This document shows, piece after piece, positions 697 through 63,998 of a DNA stretch of 64,000 nucleotides. The translations under genes were made by a program, and so were the position numbers. The stretch is from positions 48,921 through 112,920 of the forward strand of contig JAFWGN010000007.1 of assembly GCA_017515285.1 (NCBI GenBank). The letters run 5' to 3'. Origin of the DNA: Candidatus Saccharimonadota bacterium. GTDB taxonomy: Bacteria; Patescibacteriota; Saccharimonadia; Saccharimonadales; Saccharimonadaceae. Within the stretch, counting starts at the first letter, position 1, and the number at the start of each line of letters is the position of its first letter. The notes beneath the pieces are model-generated. The model saw only the letters and a list, made by a program, of their open reading frames with translations, searched no databases and was not told where the DNA came from.

Positions 697-3411
697 CTAG
701 TCGCGGGCGAGACAACGGATTGGCAGACCATTGATTTTGGCAGTGCCAGCCTGCGCGCTAAAGAAACCGCTAAAACTAAAATCGAAAATTCGAACCGATG
801 ACGAGTCGTGCCCAGTAGAAGACCAGAACATTCCGTTATTACCGCGACTTATTAATGCTCCATTGTTCCAATAATAGTATCCAAACATGGCGCTAGAAAT
901 CGGTAGCTGTATCGCTCCGGTAATAGAGGCACCACTGCCATATCCACTGCCAGTTAAAGAATAGGCATCTCGAAACAATTTAAGCCATGAGCCATTACTC
1001 GCGGAATCACCCGCTGGAAGTTTCCAGCCCTTCGGACAGATATCTTGCGATACGGTAGTGTCTGTGTCGTATTTGTATTGGCCAACTCCAGCCGTAGCTG
1101 CATACCAGTTATAGTAATCACCAAAGTACATCGAACCCCGCATGGTAAAGCTGTCGTTGTCGTCATCACCGCCACCGCCGTGGTCGGTAATTAACCCCGG
1201 TTGCCAAGCGCTATCGTGAGTCAAATTATTAGAACCAGAATAGGTTCCTTCCGGAAGCGAAACCATGCCTTTATAATTCATTCTACACTCGCTATGCCCG
1301 CTTCTTTCGTCGGCAGTATACGATATACAGGTTGCAACTGGACCTAGGAGGTTTTGTGTACCGTCCATGTAGGCAGGACCTTTGCCTGAACCGGTAGAGG
1401 TAGCCGTAGCAGAGTCGTTGTTGTAGGAACGGGCGTAAGAAGTATTAGCATTGATAGCGACAGATATAATGTTTGCTCCCGTGCACATCCCCGCGTTTAC
1501 GGCGGTATTAGCTCCGAACGGGCCAGTACCTTCTGCGCAGACCGAACCCCACTTAAGATCGTTGCCGAAGTTGGATTCGGATTGGAATTGATAATTCACA
1601 ACAGAAAGGCCTGCGGTAGCCCCGGTGGTTTCTAGAACGGTGTTTTTGGCTAGCATGACGGCGCTTGGGTCCCAATAATCGCTCGTGATATTTGTATTTT
1701 CCGAGGTTAGATTATGTGTTCCGGCAAAGTCGGCGAGGTTAAGGTCTAGGTTCTGAACCATCCAACAGTTACCATCGGCCAACCTACGGACGAGATAAGT
1801 CTTTTGGTCGCGGTTGTCTTCGAGGAGGAAGGTGCCAGTGCCGACCTTGGCGGATTGGGAGGCTATCGTATAGCCGGATTCGAGAGTAGAGTTAGAGTTT
1901 ACGAGAGCGGTGGAGTCGAAGCCGGAAGCGGTGGAAGTGTTGTTAACGCCGGTAGTGTCGGTCGGGGAGTAGATTCTCGCGTTGGCGCCGATAGTCTTGC
2001 CCCAAGTGTTGGTGTTCTTACAGATGCTTCCCGTCATCTCCTGCATCTCCCTCACCACAAAGTCTTCTCCTTCCGTGTCCGTTGTCGATTGTAGGCCGAC
2101 GTAGGTAAACGAAGCGACCAGGTTGTTACTGCCGTCCTTATAGCGGCTGATGTAGTTATAATTATAGTTGTTAACCTTAATCCAAAAGTCGTATTCTCCC
2201 TTGCCGTCACCTTTCCCGAGTATTCCGTCAATTGTTTCCGGTAGTTCACAGTCAAGACTAGCTCCATTCTCGCCAAAGACTACGTTAGAAATACTTGTGC
2301 ATTCAGCGTAATCATTATTACTAATCGTAAGGCTAGTATTACTGAGGCCTCCATCGATGAGTTTAGCCACACTATGCTTAACGATGGCCACGGTTAAGTT
2401 ATCGGCCGACAAGTCACTGGCGGAAGTTGCGAGGTCAAACTCAAGATGAACCGTGTCTCCTTCCCCACCAAAGGATTTATCACGCTTAACGTTAGTGGAG
2501 ATTCTATCAAGGCTTCTTGCGGAAGCGAGAGCCGTATAGACGATTTGGTTGGAGTATTCTCCGGCAATCGTATCGGTGTCGACCATGGTGGCAAAGTAGA
2601 TGTCGAAGTGGTTGTTTTCTGTATCTCCCGTGATGGTTTCTTCATTACTGCCCGTATATGTGCCGAACCCTTTAGTGTTATTAGTTTCTTGTTTCCAAAT
2701 CATTTGAGAAAGAGAGGTATTATTAACTACTGGGATAGCTGCCCATTTGGTCGTATTATAAACGTTACTATTACTAGCCGTTAGGTCGGAGGTGATATAG
2801 CCAGAAGAGGAACTAATCGGATAGGCAGAGTAAGCAGAGGCATTGTCAAAGCCATTCGTTACCGGGCTTCCCGGCACCGCATATCCCCAAGCCGAACCGG
2901 AGAAGACAGAAGGCGAGGTCCAGGTCCCGGAAGTTGAGCCGTCCCCTACGGACGGTATCGGGATGTTAGTGGTTCCGTCAAGTAGAAGGTCGTTAACGGC
3001 TGTACCGGAAGTTGGGTTTGCCATGGAGATATAGACGGCATAGTACTTTCCGGAAGTGTTAATCCCGATAGTCTTCTTCGCTACCCGCATAGTGCCTTTA
3101 TTACTATCGCTATTACTAGTAGGAGTAATCGTTCCAAAATTGATGTCGCCATGTCCAACATTACTCGTTGACCCGCCGGCTTGAGTTGCCGCATAGTCCG
3201 GGTCAAGCTCAAGGCTAATCCCGCTCCAAAGGACAGAAGCAGAAAGGTTGGTGGTGGCGGAAGCCTCGGAGATTAGAGTTGGAACTAGCGCGAAGAAAAC
3301 TAGAAAAAGCAAGAACGACGCGGTTGATCCAATAAGGTATTTGCGGTAGAGTGTGCGAAGTCTTATGTTCGTTTCTGCGTCGGTTAGGGTTGGTGTTTTG
3401 GTTGGGTGCAT
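697..3411 (-). CDS. Large secreted/surface protein, Ser/Thr/Asn-rich, N-terminal membrane anchor, C-terminal domain resembling the Fibrobacter succinogenes major paralogous domain (paralog of 29731-31707)
   Basis: 904 aa with a hydrophobic N-terminus followed by the conserved LVPTLISEASAT. The C-terminal region has MQEMTGSIC, DGNCWMVQNL, YYNWYAA and CPKGWKLP, ending RCLARD; its paralog ends RCVARD. A strong RBS (aaaggaggactATG) precedes the start. The domain assignment is from memory of TIGR02145-type motifs. Confidence 0.6.
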   Translation of the reverse strand: MHPTKTPTLTDAETNIRLRTLYRKYLIGSTASFLLFLVFFALVPTLISEASATTNLSASVLWSGISLELDPDYAATQAGGSTSNVGHGDINFGTITPTSNSDSNKGTMRVAKKTIGINTSGKYYAVYISMANPTSGTAVNDLLLDGTTNIPIPSVGDGSTSGTWTSPSVFSGSAWGYAVPGSPVTNGFDNASAYSAYPISSSSGYITSDLTASNSNVYNTTKWAAIPVVNNTSLSQMIWKQETNNTKGFGTYTGSNEETITGDTENNHFDIYFATMVDTDTIAGEYSNQIVYTALASARSLDRISTNVKRDKSFGGEGDTVHLEFDLATSASDLSADNLTVAIVKHSVAKLIDGGLSNTSLTISNNDYAECTSISNVVFGENGASLDCELPETIDGILGKGDGKGEYDFWIKVNNYNYNYISRYKDGSNNLVASFTYVGLQSTTDTEGEDFVVREMQEMTGSICKNTNTWGKTIGANARIYSPTDTTGVNNTSTASGFDSTALVNSNSTLESGYTIASQSAKVGTGTFLLEDNRDQKTYLVRRLADGNCWMVQNLDLNLADFAGTHNLTSENTNITSDYWDPSAVMLAKNTVLETTGATAGLSVVNYQFQSESNFGNDLKWGSVCAEGTGPFGANTAVNAGMCTGANIISVAINANTSYARSYNNDSATATSTGSGKGPAYMDGTQNLLGPVATCISYTADERSGHSECRMNYKGMVSLPEGTYSGSNNLTHDSAWQPGLITDHGGGGDDDNDSFTMRGSMYFGDYYNWYAATAGVGQYKYDTDTTVSQDICPKGWKLPAGDSASNGSWLKLFRDAYSLTGSGYGSGASITGAIQLPISSAMFGYYYWNNGALISRGNNGMFWSSTGHDSSSVRIFDFSFSGFFSAQAGTAKINGLPIRCLARD

Positions 3412-3662
3412 AGTCCTCCTTTTGGTTGTTAAACCCCGAGGGCTGATACAAAAATGGCACCACGAGGGTGCAACCCATCCAAATTATCCGCTTTCGCCAA
3501 ATAAATACAGAATGGTCCCTTATGGTGCCATTTTTTGTATTTATGTGGCGCTAACAGTTTCTCTGTTGGTCTTTTAAAAAGGTGCGGTTCTAGTTTATTC
3601 AACTAGTACTGGATGGGTTGCATTTATGGTTTTATTTTAGCACAAGAAAAGTCGCCTTGCAA
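3412..3662 (-). promoter_or_regulatory. Promoter plus long structured 5' leader of the surface-protein gene
   Basis: On the minus strand, TTGCAA (complement of 3657-3662), a 17 nt spacer and TAAAAT (complement of 3634-3639). The leader contains interleaved inverted repeats (caacccatcc/ggatgggttg; aaaaatggcacc/ggtgccattttt) and a motif shared with the paralog leader (aaatggcRccacgag). Confidence 0.4.
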
Positions 3663-26910: not shown

Positions 26911-27077
26911 AAAGTAGTTTACGTTTCTTTCTCAACGTGAGCCTCATCGCAATCGTAAAAATAACCTTAACAGGCTGTTTCTCCGTGCGGAGACAAGCTC
27001 GTGCTCGAAACAGTGTCAAGGTTATTTTTACTGTTGGTTTCGGCTCTTTGTTGTTTCGAAAGAAAGTAAACTACTTT
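26911..27077. repeat. Long imperfect palindromic repeat family B, copy c (between secY and rplO)
   Basis: A 70-nt core (about 26957-27029) is near-identical to 63882-63953. The outer arms (aaagtagtttac / gtaaactacttt) form a perfect inverted repeat. Confidence 0.7.
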
Positions 27078-27535
27078 TCTTCTTTCTTTGCCCTCATCGG
27101 GACGGGAACCTTTTTGAAGTCGCCACCGGCCTTTTTGACGGCTTCGATAGCGGACTTGCTGGCGAATTGGGTTTCGAGATTGATTTTCGATTTTAGTTCG
27201 CCGCGGGAGATAACTTTGACCTTGACGAAGGGGCTAGAAATGTAGCTTTTTTCGGCGAGGAGGAAGTTATCGACGTTGCCTTTAAGGTCGTTTAAGACGT
27301 CGGTATAGACGACTTCGGCCTTAGCGTGCAAGGTTTTGAAGCCTTTGAGCTTCGGGATGGCTTGCATGATGGCGCGTTGGCCACCCATGAAACCGGTTGG
27401 CATCTTTCTGTGGCCGGTGCGGGCTTTTTGACCCTTGGTGCCACGGCCGGCGGTTTTACCTTGGCCGGCGGAGATGCCGCGGCCCTTGCGGATCGGACGG
27501 GTGTTTTTATAAACTTCGAGTTCGTTGTACTTCAT
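27071..27535 (-). CDS. rplO: 50S ribosomal protein L15
   Basis: ...GRGISAGQGKTAGRGTKGQKARTGH... L15. Confidence 0.95.
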   Translation of the reverse strand: MKYNELEVYKNTRPIRKGRGISAGQGKTAGRGTKGQKARTGHRKMPTGFMGGQRAIMQAIPKLKGFKTLHAKAEVVYTDVLNDLKGNVDNFLLAEKSYISSPFVKVKVISRGELKSKINLETQFASKSAIEAVKKAGGDFKKVPVPMRAKKEEK

Positions 27536-27537
27536 GG

Positions 27538-28293
27538 TTATTTCTCCTTCTTTGCCGCGGATTTTTTCGTAGCGGTCTTTTTAGGAGCGGATTTAGCGGT
27601 AACCTTTTTTGTCGCAGGTTTCTTAACCTCGGCTTTTTTCTCGGTCTTTTCGACTTTGGCGGCCTTGGGTTCAGAGGCTTTGAGTGCGGTCGTGGTCCAT
27701 TCTTTTCGCGGAGTTTGTTGGCGTAAACCTTCGAGAACGGCATAGGCGATGTTGACTTTGTTTGTCGAGCCGAGGCTCTTGGAAATCAAGTTCTTGACGC
27801 CGGTAAGACCGATAATCGAGCGGACGACACCGCCGGCGATAATCCCGGTACCAGGGGCGGCCGGCTTCATGAGGACGTCAGCGCCGGTAATCTTGGTTTC
27901 GACTTCGTGGCAGAGAGTTTCTCCGTCCATTTGGAAGGTAATCATGTTTTTCTTGGCTTTGGTCGTGGCCTTTTGGACGGCGGAGGTAACGTCGTTACCT
28001 TTTGCGACGGCGACGCCAATTTTGTTTTTGTGGTTTCCGACGGCGACGAGGGCTTTGAAGCGCATGCGGCGACCACCGGCGACGGTTCTAGAAACGCGAT
28101 CGATTTGAATCGTGGTTTCGTCGAACTCTTTGGGGGCGTCGTTAATGCGGCCGTTGCGGTCGCGGCGACCACGGCGATCCATACGACGGCCGGAGATGTC
28201 GCGAGTTTCTTTTCTCGCGGCGGTGGCGTCGGACATCTTTAAGGTTCCGGATTTGTTGATAACTTTGGCTTTGTTGTCTTTAGATTCGGGCAT
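27538..28293 (-). CDS. rpsE: 30S ribosomal protein S5 with Lys/Ala-rich C-terminal extension; abuts rplO with no rpmD (L30) between
   Basis: S5 core (RVSRTVAGGRRMRFKALVAVGN...GTGIIAGGVVRSI) plus a roughly 70-aa KKxxxK repeat tail. Confidence 0.9.
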   Translation of the reverse strand: MPESKDNKAKVINKSGTLKMSDATAARKETRDISGRRMDRRGRRDRNGRINDAPKEFDETTIQIDRVSRTVAGGRRMRFKALVAVGNHKNKIGVAVAKGNDVTSAVQKATTKAKKNMITFQMDGETLCHEVETKITGADVLMKPAAPGTGIIAGGVVRSIIGLTGVKNLISKSLGSTNKVNIAYAVLEGLRQQTPRKEWTTTALKASEPKAAKVEKTEKKAEVKKPATKKVTAKSAPKKTATKKSAAKKEK

Positions 28294-28295
28294 AA

Positions 28296-28625
28296 TTAGA
28301 ACTCCAATCCTTCTTTTCTGGCGGCGTCGGCAAGGGCAGACATTCGACCGGCGTAAAGTTTAGAACCGCGGTCGAAGACGGCTTTCTTGATGCCGGCCTT
28401 CTTGGCCTTTTTACCGAGGTCTTCACCGATTTTGGCGGCGAGTTCGGTTTTGGTGCCTTTAAGTTTCGAGCCAACAGTCGTAGCGTAAACGAGGGTCGAA
28501 CCCTTGTCGTCGTCGATAAGTTGGGCGGAAACGTGTTTATTGGAAATGTTAACGCTGAGGCGCGGACGTTCACTGGTTCCGTGAAGGTTGGCGCGAGTGC
28601 GATTTGCGCGGAAGATAGCTTTCAT
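28296..28625 (-). CDS. rplR: 50S ribosomal protein L18
   Basis: MKAIFRANRTRANLHGTSERPRLSVNISNKHVSAQLIDD... L18. The start was reassigned to the internal ATG to avoid overlap with rplF. Confidence 0.9.
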   Translation of the reverse strand: MKAIFRANRTRANLHGTSERPRLSVNISNKHVSAQLIDDDKGSTLVYATTVGSKLKGTKTELAAKIGEDLGKKAKKAGIKKAVFDRGSKLYAGRMSALADAARKEGLEF

Positions 28626-28626
28626 A

Positions 28627-29163
28627 TTATTTCTTTCCTGCCTTTCCGGCCTTGCGGAGAATGACTTCGTCCACATATTTAATGCCTTTGCCCTTGTAAG
28701 GCTCAGGTTTCTTCAGTGCGCGGATTTCCGCGGCGACCTGTCCGACCTTTTGCTTGTCGATGCCGGTGACGATAATGTTCATTTTATCGACTTTGAGCTC
28801 GACGCCTTCGGGGGCGGTGTATTTAACGGGGTGAGAAAAGCCGAGGGCCATCTCAATTTGTTTCCCTCCGCCTTGGAGACGGAAGCCGACACCGTTGATT
28901 TCAAGTTCTTTCTTGAAACCTTGGGTGACGCCAATCACGGCGTTGTTTAAAAGAGCGCGCTGAAGACCGTGCCAAGCACGAGATTCGGGCTCGTCATCGC
29001 TTCTCGTGATGACGATTTTGCCGTCTTCAACCGCGGTTTTCGTATTTTGTTGAACCGGAACAAGGAGCTGACCTTTAGGGCCTGCGACAGTAATTTCTTT
29101 GTCGCCGACCGTGATTGTCACTCCCGCCGGAACTACGATGGGTTGTTTTCCGATACGACTCAT
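28627..29163 (-). CDS. rplF: 50S ribosomal protein L6
   Basis: MSRIGKQPIVVPAGVTITV... L6 duplicated-domain protein. Confidence 0.95.
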   Translation of the reverse strand: MSRIGKQPIVVPAGVTITVGDKEITVAGPKGQLLVPVQQNTKTAVEDGKIVITRSDDEPESRAWHGLQRALLNNAVIGVTQGFKKELEINGVGFRLQGGGKQIEMALGFSHPVKYTAPEGVELKVDKMNIIVTGIDKQKVGQVAAEIRALKKPEPYKGKGIKYVDEVILRKAGKAGKK

Positions 29164-29259
29164 TTGTTTCCTTTAGTTTAATAATATCCCCGGTATTTTA
29201 TCACAGAACGGGGAATTTTTCAAGGGCGAAATGGAAACCGCTTCAAGAATTATCTTCCG

Positions 29260-29359
29260 CTTCCCTCGGCCCTAGGTCTTCTTATTTTGAACATAGAGAA
29301 CTAAAGAACTAGATTTATATCTTGGCAATAGATTATTGAAGACCTAGAGCGGAAGGAAG
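29260..29359. repeat. Palindromic repeat family A, copy 2
   Basis: See the copy at 352-451. It is followed at 29401-29436 by a tail motif (gagctcggcttctagggcttgcggttgagc) that also follows copy 1. Confidence 0.85.
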
Positions 29360-29730
29360 CTTAAATGCGGGGCGAGCTTCAGTTCTGTTTTTGTCCAGGT
29401 GCCGAGCTCGGCTTCTAGGGCTTGCGGTTGAGCGCTCTGCGGTCGTGCGACTCCTAGTCCGGTTTTCGTCTGGTGCTCCGCGAACCCTATAATTTTGACA
29501 CATGTTCTCGGTCTTCGACCTCGACCCGCTCGTCGTTTCGGAAAGCACAGAGCGAGCTCTGGCTTTCTCTCAACTCCTCGGGGTTTCACTCAATCCTCGC
29601 AAATGCGCCTCGGGTAACACCGGCCGTCGATTTGCTCGGATGAGGAAAATGTCGTCAAAATTATCGGGTCTTGTGCGCAATCGACTAAAACCGAACTAGT
29701 CGTCGCCTCAAACAGTTAGTTGTTAAAATG

Positions 29731-31707
29731 CTAGTCGCGGGCGACGCACCGAACATATTGGGCACAAGCACGCTGCGGATAGCCGGCGTCTCTGCCTAAA
29801 ACTGATCCCACCCATTGGATGTTTTCCGAACCGCCAGGCGTGTACGCGGATTTTCTATTGGGCGTTGATGTTTTCCAATAGGCGTTTCCCTTAGCGTTCA
29901 GGCTCGTAGTAGAACCGCTTGGGTCATAAGAACCGCCGGCAACTGGCAGAAAAGCTAGCTGGAACGGATACATACTTTCCGCCTGGCTCGCGGAGGGCAA
30001 TTTCCAGTTTGCTGGACATAGGCTATGCTCGGCCTCGGTCCATGCGGTATCTATTGATACCGCTACAGTCATAGCTGTTGCGACGGCATAATTATACCAA
30101 ACTGTTGGATCGCCATTCGGGTCAAGGCCTTCGTGTAGCTTTGCCTCCGTAAAAGACCACGAAACAGCAGCGTCTTCGTAATTGATGTTCGTCGCGACCG
30201 CCACGTCGCTCGTCTCGGGGTCGAGAGTGGTGCCGACAAAGCGAAGGTTGTCAACCATCCAACAATCGTCTCCGAGTTTTCTGATTCTGTAGGAGATATC
30301 GTCACGAACATCCTTGAGGGAGAAGGTGGTGGCGGCGGAACTAGCCGAATCAAAGGCGGTGGTATTTTGGCAAATACTCCCCGTCATCTCCTGCATGGTC
30401 TTGACGTATGCTTCGGCGTTATCAGGGTCGCCGTCAGCGGTATGGATGGTTTGGAGGCCGATGCCGGTGGAATAGGTAATGGAAGCGATGTCGGAAGTGG
30501 TGCCGGTAGTGTCGTCCGTAGCGCGGCAATGGCTTAAGTAGCTAATCGTGCTTTGTCCATTCGGAGTGTTAATGATAACCCAAAAGTCGTATTCTCCGGC
30601 TTGGGCTATGGCATGGGAACTACTAGTGGTTCCCGTAGTGCCGATTGGTGGGAGCTTACAAGTAATGGTAGCACTGATGCTGTTTGAAGAAGCGCCGGTA
30701 GTGTCTATACTGTTAGTAGCGCACTTGGGATAATCGGTAGCGGTAAGGCTAGAAACATCATAATTATTGGTCGCGATAATGCTATGCGGAACTAGGTAGA
30801 TATTTATATCACTGATCGTTAGAGTCGAGTCTGTAGCGACAAGGTCAACCTCCAAAGTTTCTAGTTCGTTCATCATGCTTAACGCTGTGTCTTTATCGCG
30901 CATAATGTTCTCACTTAAGGTATCGAGGCTAGAAGTGGAAGCAATAGCAGTATAGAGGACTTGGTTCTCATAAGTCCCGGAAAGAACATCATTATCGACC
31001 ATAATGGAATAATAAATATAGAAGCTATCTCCCGAATCGAATCCAGAAACGACGTTTGTGGAGTTTCTTTGGATTTGGACAGCATTACCAAGGCTAGGAA
31101 CGCTAGACCATTTACCAGTATTATAGACCTGACTGCCGGTACCGGTTTTGGTCAGGTTATTGGCGGCAGTATCGATACCAGAAGCATTAGCAAGAAACGA
31201 GTCATAGGCCGAGAGAGTAGCGGAAGTCTCCGTGGTTGGAACAGCATAGCCCCAAGAGGATTGAGCGAAGCCGGAGACGATAGAGTCGGAAGTGGCGGGA
31301 ATGGAACGGGCGGAATCTTCGGACACGGTGAGTGAGTTATCGGCATCAGTCGTAGAAAGATAGACGGCATAATATTGGCCTTCGGTCGTAACGTCAATTT
31401 GCTTTTTAACGACCTTTTGAGTACCATAAGCACCGCTAGCGGTATCACGTCCAGAAGGAATGATGTCATAGAAGTTAATGTCGCCATGAGGGTCGAGAGT
31501 TAGCGAGATTGCTTGCCAGGTAACCGAGGCGGAGACTTCTTGGGTGGCGGAAGCCTCGGAAATTAAAGTTGGGACTAGACAGAAGCCGAGAATGAAAATA
31601 GCCAGTGCTCCGACGGAAGCGCCGAGTAGCTGGCGGATTAAGTTTCTTGATTTGATATTTCCGAGGGTTTCTTCGGGTGATTGTTCCCTTGGTTGGTTGG
31701 GTTGCAT
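29731..31707 (-). CDS. Large secreted/surface protein, paralog of 697-3411 (N-terminal anchor plus LVPTLISEASAT, C-terminal Fibrobacter-type domain)
   Basis: 658 aa. It shares the N-terminal motif, MQEMTGSIC, DDCWMVDNL, WYNYA, CPANWKLP and the ...RCVARD C-terminus with the 904-aa paralog, and has the same RBS/start context. Confidence 0.6.
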   Translation of the reverse strand: MQPNQPREQSPEETLGNIKSRNLIRQLLGASVGALAIFILGFCLVPTLISEASATQEVSASVTWQAISLTLDPHGDINFYDIIPSGRDTASGAYGTQKVVKKQIDVTTEGQYYAVYLSTTDADNSLTVSEDSARSIPATSDSIVSGFAQSSWGYAVPTTETSATLSAYDSFLANASGIDTAANNLTKTGTGSQVYNTGKWSSVPSLGNAVQIQRNSTNVVSGFDSGDSFYIYYSIMVDNDVLSGTYENQVLYTAIASTSSLDTLSENIMRDKDTALSMMNELETLEVDLVATDSTLTISDINIYLVPHSIIATNNYDVSSLTATDYPKCATNSIDTTGASSNSISATITCKLPPIGTTGTTSSSHAIAQAGEYDFWVIINTPNGQSTISYLSHCRATDDTTGTTSDIASITYSTGIGLQTIHTADGDPDNAEAYVKTMQEMTGSICQNTTAFDSASSAATTFSLKDVRDDISYRIRKLGDDCWMVDNLRFVGTTLDPETSDVAVATNINYEDAAVSWSFTEAKLHEGLDPNGDPTVWYNYAVATAMTVAVSIDTAWTEAEHSLCPANWKLPSASQAESMYPFQLAFLPVAGGSYDPSGSTTSLNAKGNAYWKTSTPNRKSAYTPGGSENIQWVGSVLGRDAGYPQRACAQYVRCVARD

Positions 31708-31980
31708 AGTCCTCCTTTTAGTTTTTTAACTGTGGGAGCCATGACTTTGGAACAGAAATGGCGCCACGAGACTTGCAAAGCCCAACACATTGATTGTATT
31801 TTTACAACAAACTCAATAATGGGGTTCTCATGACGCCATTAATATAAGGTTGTTGTAAAAATAATACTTTTAATAAACAATCTTTAATAATGTTGAGCTT
31901 TGCATATCTATGATAGCACGAATAAAAAACGATGGGTAGACTATTTTTTCGCGCGTAATATGTTCTAATATTTCTTAAAC
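31708..31980 (-). promoter_or_regulatory. Structured 5' leader of surface-protein paralog 2 (homologous motif to 3412-3662)
   Basis: Shares ctcgtggYgccattt and aaatggcgcc/aatggcgtca partners with leader 1. Confidence 0.4.
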
Positions 31981-32006
31981 AAAAATCCCCGCGAGATGAC
32001 GGGGAT
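31981..32006 (-). terminator. Rho-independent terminator downstream of tsf
   Basis: Minus strand aucccc gucaucucg cggggau, then uuuuu. Confidence 0.6.
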
Positions 32007-32027
32007 TTTCGGTATATATAATATATA

Positions 32028-32627
32028 TTATATATACTGTTCCGTGACGCCGAGTTCGATGCGCTTGAATTGGCGGACGGTGATGTTTTCGCCGGTCTTG
32101 GCAATGGCCTCCTTGATGAAGGCTTCGACGGTTTTCGAATCGTCGAGGATGTAAGGCTGCAAGAGGAGAACCTTGTCGGCGAAGGACTTCTTCATTTGGC
32201 CGCCGAGGATTTGCTCCTTCATCTTTTCCGGGCCTTTGAAATTTTCTTCGAGCTCTTTCATTTTCGTGGCCTTGACGTCTTCGGGGATGTCGTCTTCGGA
32301 GACGTAGAGCGGGCTCATTGAGGCGACTTGCATCGCGAGCTTATGGGCGAGATCCTTGAATTCGTCGGTCTTGGCGACGAAAGAGGTTTCACAGTTGACT
32401 TCGACGATGGCGGCGATGCGACCATCGTGGACGTAGGAGTCGACGAGGCCTTCGCGGGTTTCGCGGTCGCCACGTTTTTCGGCTTTGGTGAGGCCTTTTT
32501 TGCGCATAGCTTCTAGGGCCTTGTCGAAATCGCCGTTCGCTTCAACGAGGGCGTTTTTCGCGTCGGTTAAGCCGACACCGGAAAGTTCTTTGAGCTTTTT
32601 AATATCTTCAATGGAAATGTTTGCCAT
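32028..32627 (-). CDS. tsf: Elongation factor Ts (short form)
   Basis: MANISIEDIKKLKELSGVGLTDAKNAL (UBA-like N-terminus), then an EF-Ts core. Confidence 0.9.
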   Translation of the reverse strand: MANISIEDIKKLKELSGVGLTDAKNALVEANGDFDKALEAMRKKGLTKAEKRGDRETREGLVDSYVHDGRIAAIVEVNCETSFVAKTDEFKDLAHKLAMQVASMSPLYVSEDDIPEDVKATKMKELEENFKGPEKMKEQILGGQMKKSFADKVLLLQPYILDDSKTVEAFIKEAIAKTGENITVRQFKRIELGVTEQYI

Positions 32628-32636
32628 TTTTTCTCC

Positions 32637-33323
32637 TTATTTTTTAGCGGATTTGATAGCGGTCTCAAAATAACCGAGGACGAGCTCTTCGGCCTTGATA
32701 GCGTCGTCGTTCATCGGAATGACATAGTTGATTCCGGTCGGATCGACGTTGGTGTCGCAAATGGCGATGACGGGGATTTTGAGAGCCTTCGCTTCTTTGA
32801 CGGCGTTTTTGTCTTCCATCGCGTCGGTAACGAGGATGGCGGCGGGTTGTTCAGTCATTTCTTTAATTCCGCCGTAGCGTTCGTTTAACGTGTCGATTTC
32901 TTCTTGGAAGCGTTGAACTTCGAGTTTCGAGTAGCGAGATTCGAGTTCGCCGGAGGCCATCTTCTTTTCTAAATCCTTGAGTTTTCGGATTTGCCTATTG
33001 ACGGTTTCGACGTTGGTTAATGTGCCACCGACCCAACGGTTTGTAACGTAAGGCATTTCGGCATTCTCGGCGGAAGTTTTCACGAGGTCTTTGAGTTGTT
33101 TCTTGGTGCCGACGAAGAGGATTTTCTTCCCGTTTTTTACAAGGTCTTCCGCAAAGGCGAGCGCCTTCTCGAGACCTTCGACAGTTTTGTCGAGGTTGAT
33201 AATATGGGACTCACCGCGTTTGCTGTGAATATAGGGGGCCATTTTCGGGTGCCAGCGGCTAGTCTTGTGCCCAAAATGAGCGCCAGCTTCGAAAAGGGCT
33301 TGCATATCGACATTGATTGCCAT
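32637..33323 (-). CDS. rpsB: 30S ribosomal protein S2
   Basis: ...LFEAGAHFGHKTSRWHPKM...VTNRWVGGTLTN... S2. Confidence 0.95.
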   Translation of the reverse strand: MAINVDMQALFEAGAHFGHKTSRWHPKMAPYIHSKRGESHIINLDKTVEGLEKALAFAEDLVKNGKKILFVGTKKQLKDLVKTSAENAEMPYVTNRWVGGTLTNVETVNRQIRKLKDLEKKMASGELESRYSKLEVQRFQEEIDTLNERYGGIKEMTEQPAAILVTDAMEDKNAVKEAKALKIPVIAICDTNVDPTGINYVIPMNDDAIKAEELVLGYFETAIKSAKK

Positions 33324-44778: not shown

Positions 44779-44956
44779 TATAAAAGTCCATTTTCTCGAC
44801 GGGGTCGCCACCGTCGCTAGCGCGACTTCGCCGCAGTCGTCAAAAAATACCTTAATAGTCGGATTCTCGACATCGGACTTTCGAGTCTCGAATCCGTATC
44901 AAGGTATTTTTGACTGCTGGGCGTGGCTCTTTAATGTCGAAAAAAAGACTTTTATA
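44779..44956. repeat. Long imperfect palindromic repeat family B, copy a (between convergent rmuC and recR)
   Basis: The arms share about 40 nt on each side with 63848-63998 (ttttctcgacggggtcgccaccgtYgctagcgcgac...; ...tatttttgactgctgggcgtggctc...). The whole element is about a 180-bp imperfect palindrome. Confidence 0.75.
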
Positions 44957-63826: not shown

Positions 63827-63998
63827 GATAAGCCTTTTCTCGACGGGGTCGCCACCGTTGCTAGCGCGACATCGCCGCAGTCGTCAAAATAACCTTAACA
63901 GGCTGTTTCTCCGCGCGGAGACAAGCTCGTGCTCGAAACAGTGTCAAGGTTATTTTGACTGCTGGGCGTGGCTCCTTATTGTCTCGAAAAGGCTTATT
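63827..63998. repeat. Long imperfect palindromic repeat family B, copy b (reaches window end)
   Basis: Arms homologous to 44779-44956 and core identical to 26957-27029. Outer arms gataagcctt / aaggcttat pair with each other. Confidence 0.75.

Follow-up and report, generated by a model that had tools for sequence, protein, structure and literature searches.

Proteins with the Fib_succ_major or FISUMP domain (PF09603, TIGR02145; the related DUF1566/Lcl_C family is PF07603) typically bear a lipoprotein signal in Fibrobacter and Bacteroidetes. The literature that mentions Fib_succ_major mostly concerns diversity-generating retroelements (DGRs), for which Fib_succ_major/DUF1566 is described as a recognised class of target domain (PMC5758913, PMC11661182), and bacteria of the Candidate Phyla Radiation (CPR) are described as DGR hosts (PMC8144416). 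A close system is formed by DGR variable proteins whose variable region (VR) is of the CLec2 type, category 'd' of Wu et al. 2018, among them Legionella LdtA and, on structural grounds, Treponema denticola TvpA (PDB 2y3c). Bacteroides surface glycan-binding proteins with N-terminal IPT/Ig domains (BACOVA_02650, SGBP-B and BT_3476) are also among the closest systems. Our literature searches found no published work joining Saccharibacteria with Fib_succ_major or DUF1566. Here we analysed a 64-kb stretch of DNA (the window) from a metagenome-assembled genome (MAG) of 'Candidatus Saccharibacteria bacterium', of ruminant-gut type, which contains two paralogous genes, called A and B in what follows. 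The evidence makes it likely that they encode exported binding proteins of a narrow, lineage-specific family, each with a signal peptide, a stalk of two domains (D1 and D2) and a FISUMP head, and that both are copies not diversified by a DGR.

A and B share with the FISUMP proteins a profile match, the CP.GW.LP and RC motifs, the conserved cysteines and a predicted extracytoplasmic location. They differ from them in scoring below the curated cutoffs, in being fused to the Saccharibacteria-specific D1-D2 and, in the case of A, in carrying insertions of ~200 amino acids (aa); moreover, their N-terminus appears to be of the Sec/SPI type instead of the lipoprotein signal found in Fibrobacter and Bacteroidetes. 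Compared with the DGR variable proteins, A and B have no relationship between a VR and a template region (TR), no initiation of mutagenic homing (IMH) sequence and no linked reverse transcriptase (RT), and LdtA and TvpA are, unlike A and B, lipoproteins of diderm bacteria.

A first-pass annotation, made from the sequence alone, had reported two open reading frames (ORFs) of 904 and 658 aa at 697-3411 and 29731-31707, and these coordinates and sizes are exact. Both genes lie on the minus strand and are organised as follows.

697..3411, minus strand: gene A (IKE71_01685, P0028), an ORF equal to the NCBI protein; 904 aa with putative signal peptide, D1, D2 and long-form FISUMP module (boundaries from the family alignment)
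3256..3411, minus strand: gene A, aa 1-52; a basic n-region, then a hydrophobic h-region of ~18-23 aa and the c-region PTLISEASA; from hydropathy and the family pattern, signal peptidase I is predicted to cut after A52 (ASA↓T)
2506..3255, minus strand: gene A, D1, aa 53-302; predicted beta-sandwich with no Pfam family
2077..2505, minus strand: gene A, D2, aa 303-445; predicted Ig/IPT-like beta-sandwich with the invariant Cys pair C371 and C388
700..2076, minus strand: gene A, C-terminal module, aa 446-904; long-form FISUMP module of predicted C-type-lectin fold, with ~200 aa of low-confidence, Cys-containing insertions
700..897, minus strand: gene A, last 66 codons; counterpart of the DGR variable region of IKE71_02215, though apparently not a VR of that element's TR
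29731..31707, minus strand: gene B (IKE71_01835, P0001), an ORF with a 100% match to P0001; 658 aa with putative signal peptide, D1, D2 and short-form FISUMP module
31546..31707, minus strand: gene B, aa 1-54; N-terminus resembling a signal peptide, with PTLISEASA↓T at its end
30433..31545, minus strand: gene B, D1 (aa 55-262) and D2 (aa 263-425); two predicted beta-sandwich domains
29734..30432, minus strand: gene B, short-form FISUMP module, aa 426-658, with PF09603 and TIGR02145 matches

The proposal that the two genes are paralogs is borne out by BLASTP, which aligns the proteins at 31% identity over 710 columns (E=1e-71); tblastn found no third copy in the window. Identity falls from 43% in D1 to 31% in D2 and 27% in the C-terminal module, the least conserved part. 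The difference in length also resides in the C-terminal module (459 aa in A and 233 aa in B), the D1-D2 regions being of nearly equal length (393 and 371 aa). The word 'giant', used in the first-pass annotation, overstates proteins of 658-904 aa.

The same annotation had likened the C-terminus to the Fibrobacter domain, and this likeness holds. A matches PF09603 at 19.5 bits and TIGR02145 at 36.0 bits (E 1e-8), and B matches them at 26.1 and 29.6 bits (E 1e-6 for TIGR02145); the E-values span 1e-3 to 1e-8, significant although under the curated cutoffs of 33.9 bits (PF09603) and 41.65 bits (TIGR02145). Among 29 relatives, 24 match PF09603 (best E 9.6e-10) and four match Lcl_C/DUF1566, and the more distant D1-D2 proteins P0041, P0051 and P0082 exceed the Pfam cutoff with 40.1, 35.9 and 35.8 bits; some of these distant proteins carry an inserted Listeria-Bacteroides repeat. 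When short-form (B-like) and long-form (A-like) sub-alignments are compared with hhalign, they match at 99.9% probability (E=4.5e-34), so that the likeness between the C-termini of A and B reflects homology and not composition. All the motifs first pointed out are present (MQEMTGSIC, CWMV, YNW/YNY, CPxxWKLP and RC[LV]ARD), and C482, W483, M484, C564, W568, R653 and C654 (B numbering) are invariant across 29 sequences. The conserved cysteines and the CP.GW.LP ... RC signature thus occur in a domain predicted to be extracytoplasmic, whose predicted fold resembles those of TvpA and PvdO. At the level of the family, these profile comparisons make the Fib_succ_major/FISUMP assignment firm. What was described as a conserved module of about 250 aa is indeed homologous in the two proteins, but it differs in size (459 vs 233 aa) and is only 27% identical.

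The middle of the proteins had been seen as long, low-complexity stretches of different length, whose variable repeats would suggest a rapidly evolving surface. Although A and B contain ~40% S/T/N/G, this view has to be given up. Tandem Repeats Finder (minimum score 30) detected no tandem repeats in gene A, the one stretch scanned, and residues ~55-425 can be aligned over 29 relatives with dozens of invariant positions, A and B being 31-43% identical there. In B these residues are predicted by AlphaFold2 to form two beta-sandwich domains (mean pLDDT 80). The class of low-complexity or tandem-repeat surface proteins was rejected on these grounds. A search of PDB sequences with the family profile gave no match, and an exhaustive phmmer search with D1-D2 of B retrieved no more than 84 representative clusters from 1.84 billion proteins, with a match that in every case started 45-95 residues from the N-terminus. 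The N-terminal D1-D2 module is therefore rare and lineage-specific, whereas the C-terminal domain is common in the phylum.

It had also been thought unexpected to find such a domain in a CPR-like genome. The scan of species-representative genomes (one genome per GTDB species), with a 13-sequence subset of the family alignment as query, tells otherwise, since the 242 relatives found are nearly all from Saccharibacteria or Nanosyncoccus MAGs, often with many per genome. The C-terminal module alone is matched in many MAGs of both groups. Proteins of full-length architecture come from Saccharibacteria MAGs which, where a source is named, nearly all derive from the gut of sheep, goat or roe deer. 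The comparison of paralog number that the first-pass annotation had proposed gives at least eight paralogs in the source genome, counting A, B and six others with the same locus-tag prefix (IKE71_01075, 01250, 02215, 02875, 03005 and 03335), and up to ten or more loci in some MAGs. Full-length members were also observed in a Thermoguttaceae bin (L019, on a 2.8-kb contig) and a Fibrobacter bin (L024, on a 13-kb contig); these are probably cases of mis-binning and not of horizontal transfer.

Within the family, the domains do not agree on which proteins are closest. B is 86% identical to P0002 in D1 and 85% in D2 but only 32% in the C-terminal module; with IKE71_01075 of the same genome, the values are 40%, 28% and 70%. 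Likewise, A and P0030 are 80% and 85% identical in D1 and D2, and 37% in the C-terminal module. Judging from these discordant identities, C-terminal heads have evidently been exchanged between D1-D2 stalks. Head exchange, together with the number of paralogs and the association with a DGR described below, points to selection for diverse binding specificities, which would fit a role in recognition or adhesion in an epibiotic bacterium.

Export of the proteins is suggested by their N-termini. A and B each have 4-5 Lys or Arg within the first 30 residues and, as first noted, a single strongly hydrophobic segment, at residues ~25-45 (maxima of 2.2 and 2.5 in 19-residue Kyte-Doolittle windows, with values of at most 1.2 elsewhere). 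The 12-mer LVPTLISEASAT was correctly described as identical in both. In the alignment of 29 sequences, the consensus directly after the hydrophobic stretch is P-T-L-I-S-E-A-x-A: position -3 is A in all but two sequences, one with V and one with T, position -2 is variable (S, H, N, Y), Ala at -1 is invariant and +1 is never Pro. A helix-breaking Pro lies upstream of the A-x-A pattern. Given the (-3,-1) rule for signal peptidase I sites and this upstream Pro, the N-terminus is most likely a Sec signal peptide with the c-region PTLISE-A-x-A, and signal peptidase I would cleave it. In Gram-positive bacteria, the h-region of a Sec signal peptide typically spans ~19 residues and the c-region is longer, and the N-termini of A and B fit these lengths. 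Among the interpretations of LVPTLISEASAT in the first-pass annotation, the signal-peptidase site is thus favoured over the 'post-anchor motif'. No signal peptidase I box motifs were found in the window, which is uninformative because the gene may reside elsewhere in the genome.

Among the alternatives, the one that survives best, though we consider it unlikely, is that the hydrophobic segment stays uncleaved as a type II signal anchor, with LVPTLISEASAT as a juxtamembrane motif and the beta-sandwiches holding the lectin-fold head off the membrane. The h-region is long (18-23 aa), and a single long hydrophobic segment of ~20 residues would suit an anchor. The main argument for an anchor is one of retention: an epibiont adhesin would need to remain on the cell, and if the N-terminus is cleaved, no LPXTG, lipobox or known wall-binding domain accounts for this. 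The C-termini of A and B, which both end in ...RC[LV]ARD, have neither an LPXTG nor a hydrophobic tail. B has FC at 42-43, but Cys43 is absent from A and from most relatives and so does not constitute a lipobox; a lipoprotein was therefore ruled out. A class III (type IV pilin) signal was also rejected, as G↓F-T-L-x-E is lacking and the motif comes after the hydrophobic stretch. Against the anchor, the pattern follows the -3/-1 rule exactly throughout the family, -1 Ala and the lack of Pro at +1 included, the helix-breaking Pro is placed upstream of it, and h-regions of ~19 residues are typical of Gram-positive signal peptides. A cleaved Sec signal peptide consequently remains our preferred interpretation.

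The connection of the family with DGRs, missed by the first-pass annotation, was found at a sister paralog. IKE71_02215 (P0016), a long-form protein like A encoded on a different contig of the same genome, adjoins a complete DGR cassette (L001 10394-13179) composed of an RVT_1 gene, an accessory ORF and a VR/TR pair. Directly behind the gene come an ORF of 280 aa and the RVT_1 reverse transcriptase of 391 aa, and the last 225 nucleotides (nt) of the gene recur in inverted orientation immediately 3' of the RT. Of the 20 mismatches between the two copies, 19 are at sites where the RT-proximal copy carries A, mostly within AAC codons; around the stop codon the two are identical, and together they form a textbook VR/TR pair. 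The sequence GTGTTCCGCCCCGCG follows the stop codon in both VR and TR, and in the VR copy it is succeeded by the hairpin CCCCGGAAATGGGG. RT homologs also adjoin related genes in L009, L029, L038, L040 and L071. In an all-against-all search, VR/TR pairs were recovered from these five loci and from L062, with 82-100% of the mismatches at TR adenines, and the targets of L001, L009 and L029 have the full D1-D2-FISUMP architecture. In all six RT-bearing loci, L001 included, the TR is found 3' of the RT gene, in convergent orientation on the other strand; that of L001 is annotated inside a spurious 130-aa ORF. Wu et al. describe some DGRs with components on different strands.

No such element was found beside A or B. 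With the RT and the accessory protein of L001 as tblastn queries, no homolog was found in the window, nor does the window contain a TR-like repeat of the 3' end of A or B. The 10 kb past the window edge downstream of A hold Mur ligase, release factor, FtsE/X, CHAP and other housekeeping genes, with no RT and nothing DGR-like. No IMH or GC-rich hairpin follows the stop codon of A or B, where unrelated AT-rich sequence is found. Compatibility with the TR of this genome was scored at the protein level by listing, for every TR codon, the amino acids that it can encode if only its adenines change. By this measure, 66 of 66 residues (100%) are compatible in the DGR target IKE71_02215, 59 of 65 in IKE71_03335, 44 of 65 (68%) in A and 37 of 62 (60%) in B. 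About half of the adenine-free codons have changed in A and B; in A, 17 of 30 are conserved and 13 of 30 residues differ from those encoded by the TR. Since no RT, TR or IMH lies nearby and neither sequence is compatible with the known TR of the genome, the evidence speaks against A and B as DGR targets and indicates that they are non-diversified, static copies.

It could be argued that A and/or B are remote targets on which the IKE71_02215-linked element, or a second DGR elsewhere in the genome, acts in trans to diversify them, an explanation that we regard as quite improbable. The long-form module of A is 48% identical to that of the DGR target over 400 aligned positions, and its last 66 residues retain the VR scaffold (GYYYWNNGALISRGNNGMFWSS... 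in A and GNYEWTNGALNNRGNNGNYWSS... encoded by the TR, with G.Y.W.NGAL..RG..G..WSS...RC.A in common). DGR action on remote targets is described as possible in PMC5758913. Moreover, it weakens the case for static copies that the MAG is incomplete and was seen in part, so that a second TR/RT for A or B could lie elsewhere in the genome. However, action of the known element on A is contradicted by the changes at adenine-free TR codons and by the many non-adenine and synonymous differences between the DNA of the A tail and the L001 TR/VR, and A lacks the IMH and hairpin after its stop codon. Neither the 64-kb window nor the next 10 kb contains a TR or RT, and in the MAG RGIG6393 the TR of L009 matches neither of the other paralog loci (L011 and L027).

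Taken together, these results suggest how proteins such as A and B may work. Exported by a Gram-positive-style Sec signal peptide that signal peptidase I would cleave, D1, which belongs to no known family, and the disulfide-bearing, Ig/IPT-like D2 probably serve as a stalk or attachment module. The homologous C-terminal Fib_succ_major/FISUMP domain, of probable C-type-lectin/FGE-like fold, would be the ligand-binding head. Heads are diversified in three ways: by gene duplication, by shuffling of C-terminal against N-terminal modules, as the discordant identities show, and by mutagenic retrohoming of a DGR, which acts on the last ~60 codons of one paralog per genome, as seen at IKE71_02215 and six other loci. 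The likely role is the recognition of surface ligands, either the envelope of a host bacterium or glycans, by an epibiotic organism. The surface adhesion first envisaged, for example to a host cell, is in this respect plausible, in view of the predicted TvpA-like fold and the DGR-diversified sister paralog, although the function itself is inferred. Two further points tell against the overall interpretation: A and B individually score under the Pfam and NCBIfam cutoffs, and their ligand and adhesion role are purely what we infer. That they are instead structural envelope proteins, forming S-layer or pilus-like fibre subunits through the N-terminal beta-sandwiches with a structural C-terminal domain, is hardly credible, since the scores do not rise above those of generic Ig-like matches, and at least eight divergent paralogs with shuffled heads and one DGR-diversified head indicate recognition and not a lattice.

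The static copies may have a history of their own. We tentatively propose, as an idea that is unlikely as it stands, that non-diversified paralogs such as A are 'archived' DGR products, whose heads, first tried out through retrohoming mutagenesis of the copy linked to the DGR, were duplicated, uncoupled from the element by loss of the IMH and of TR identity, and shuffled onto other D1-D2 stalks. A itself retains the VR scaffold of the subtype that the DGR targets, and in long-form paralogs the positions with adenine-containing TR codons are the least conserved; as a sign of archiving this is only suggestive, because the adenine-free codons encode residues that are in any case apt to be conserved.

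The surroundings of the two genes present several other features. The neighbouring genes encode SecA, a peptidase M16, a Mur ligase and ribosomal proteins, and a prophage tail-fibre context was accordingly ruled out. Gene B is wedged between rpsB-tsf (32028-33323) and rplF-rplR-rpsE-rplO (27071-29163), within the area 28627-33323; rplF is not preceded by the usual rpsH, and the spc ribosomal operon appears to be interrupted at gene B. A direct repeat of 104 nt (351-454 and 29259-29362, 98% identity), with 31 nt adjoining it (455-485 and 29403-29433, 97%), sits in each case in the gap that separates the stop codon of A or B from the start of the minus-strand gene after it (Mur ligase, ~329; rplF, 29163). 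It is far more conserved than the genes A and B, it was not found beside family genes in other MAGs, and it may be a duplicated promoter/5'-untranslated-region module or a small mobile element. Directly 3' of both genes there are imperfect inverted repeats (494-556 and 610-673 for A, 29447-29499 and 29654-29706 for B), with arms of 53-64 nt that are 70-74% complementary, unlike the short GC hairpin after the variable region of L001. Upstream, ~50 nt are conserved before both start codons (3420-3475 for A, 31716-31775 for B), including a small hairpin (GCACC...GGTGC), a T-run and an identical ribosome-binding/start region, AAAAGGAGGACTATGCA.

Another intergenic repeat, of ~115-155 nt, has three copies in the window (26948-27061, 44791-44945 and 63835-63990). 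It was also observed at ~91% identity in another Saccharibacteria MAG (L018 8477-8595, L010 6105-6222 and L005 12761-12878), with two copies right after family genes, and a 33-nt core of it is found at two places upstream of the DGR target gene (L001 7530-7562 and 7777-7809). It looks like a repetitive extragenic palindromic element or a miniature inverted-repeat transposable element.

Saccharibacteria are obligate epibionts, and the way in which they recognise their hosts is poorly understood. For the window itself the outcome is mostly one of clarification: A and B are predicted to fold into several domains, one of them a binding domain of known type, and hypermutation acts on a sister gene. 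The link between DGRs and CPR bacteria and the existence of FISUMP-type targets have already been published; the lead for host recognition in gut Saccharibacteria is the combination of a multi-paralog family with head shuffling. This narrow, highly paralogous and DGR-tied family therefore provides candidate host- or ligand-recognition proteins in the Saccharibacteria of the ruminant gut. If the archiving of DGR products should prove true, a tiny epibiont genome would build up a stable repertoire for host recognition beside one continuously hypervariable sensor.

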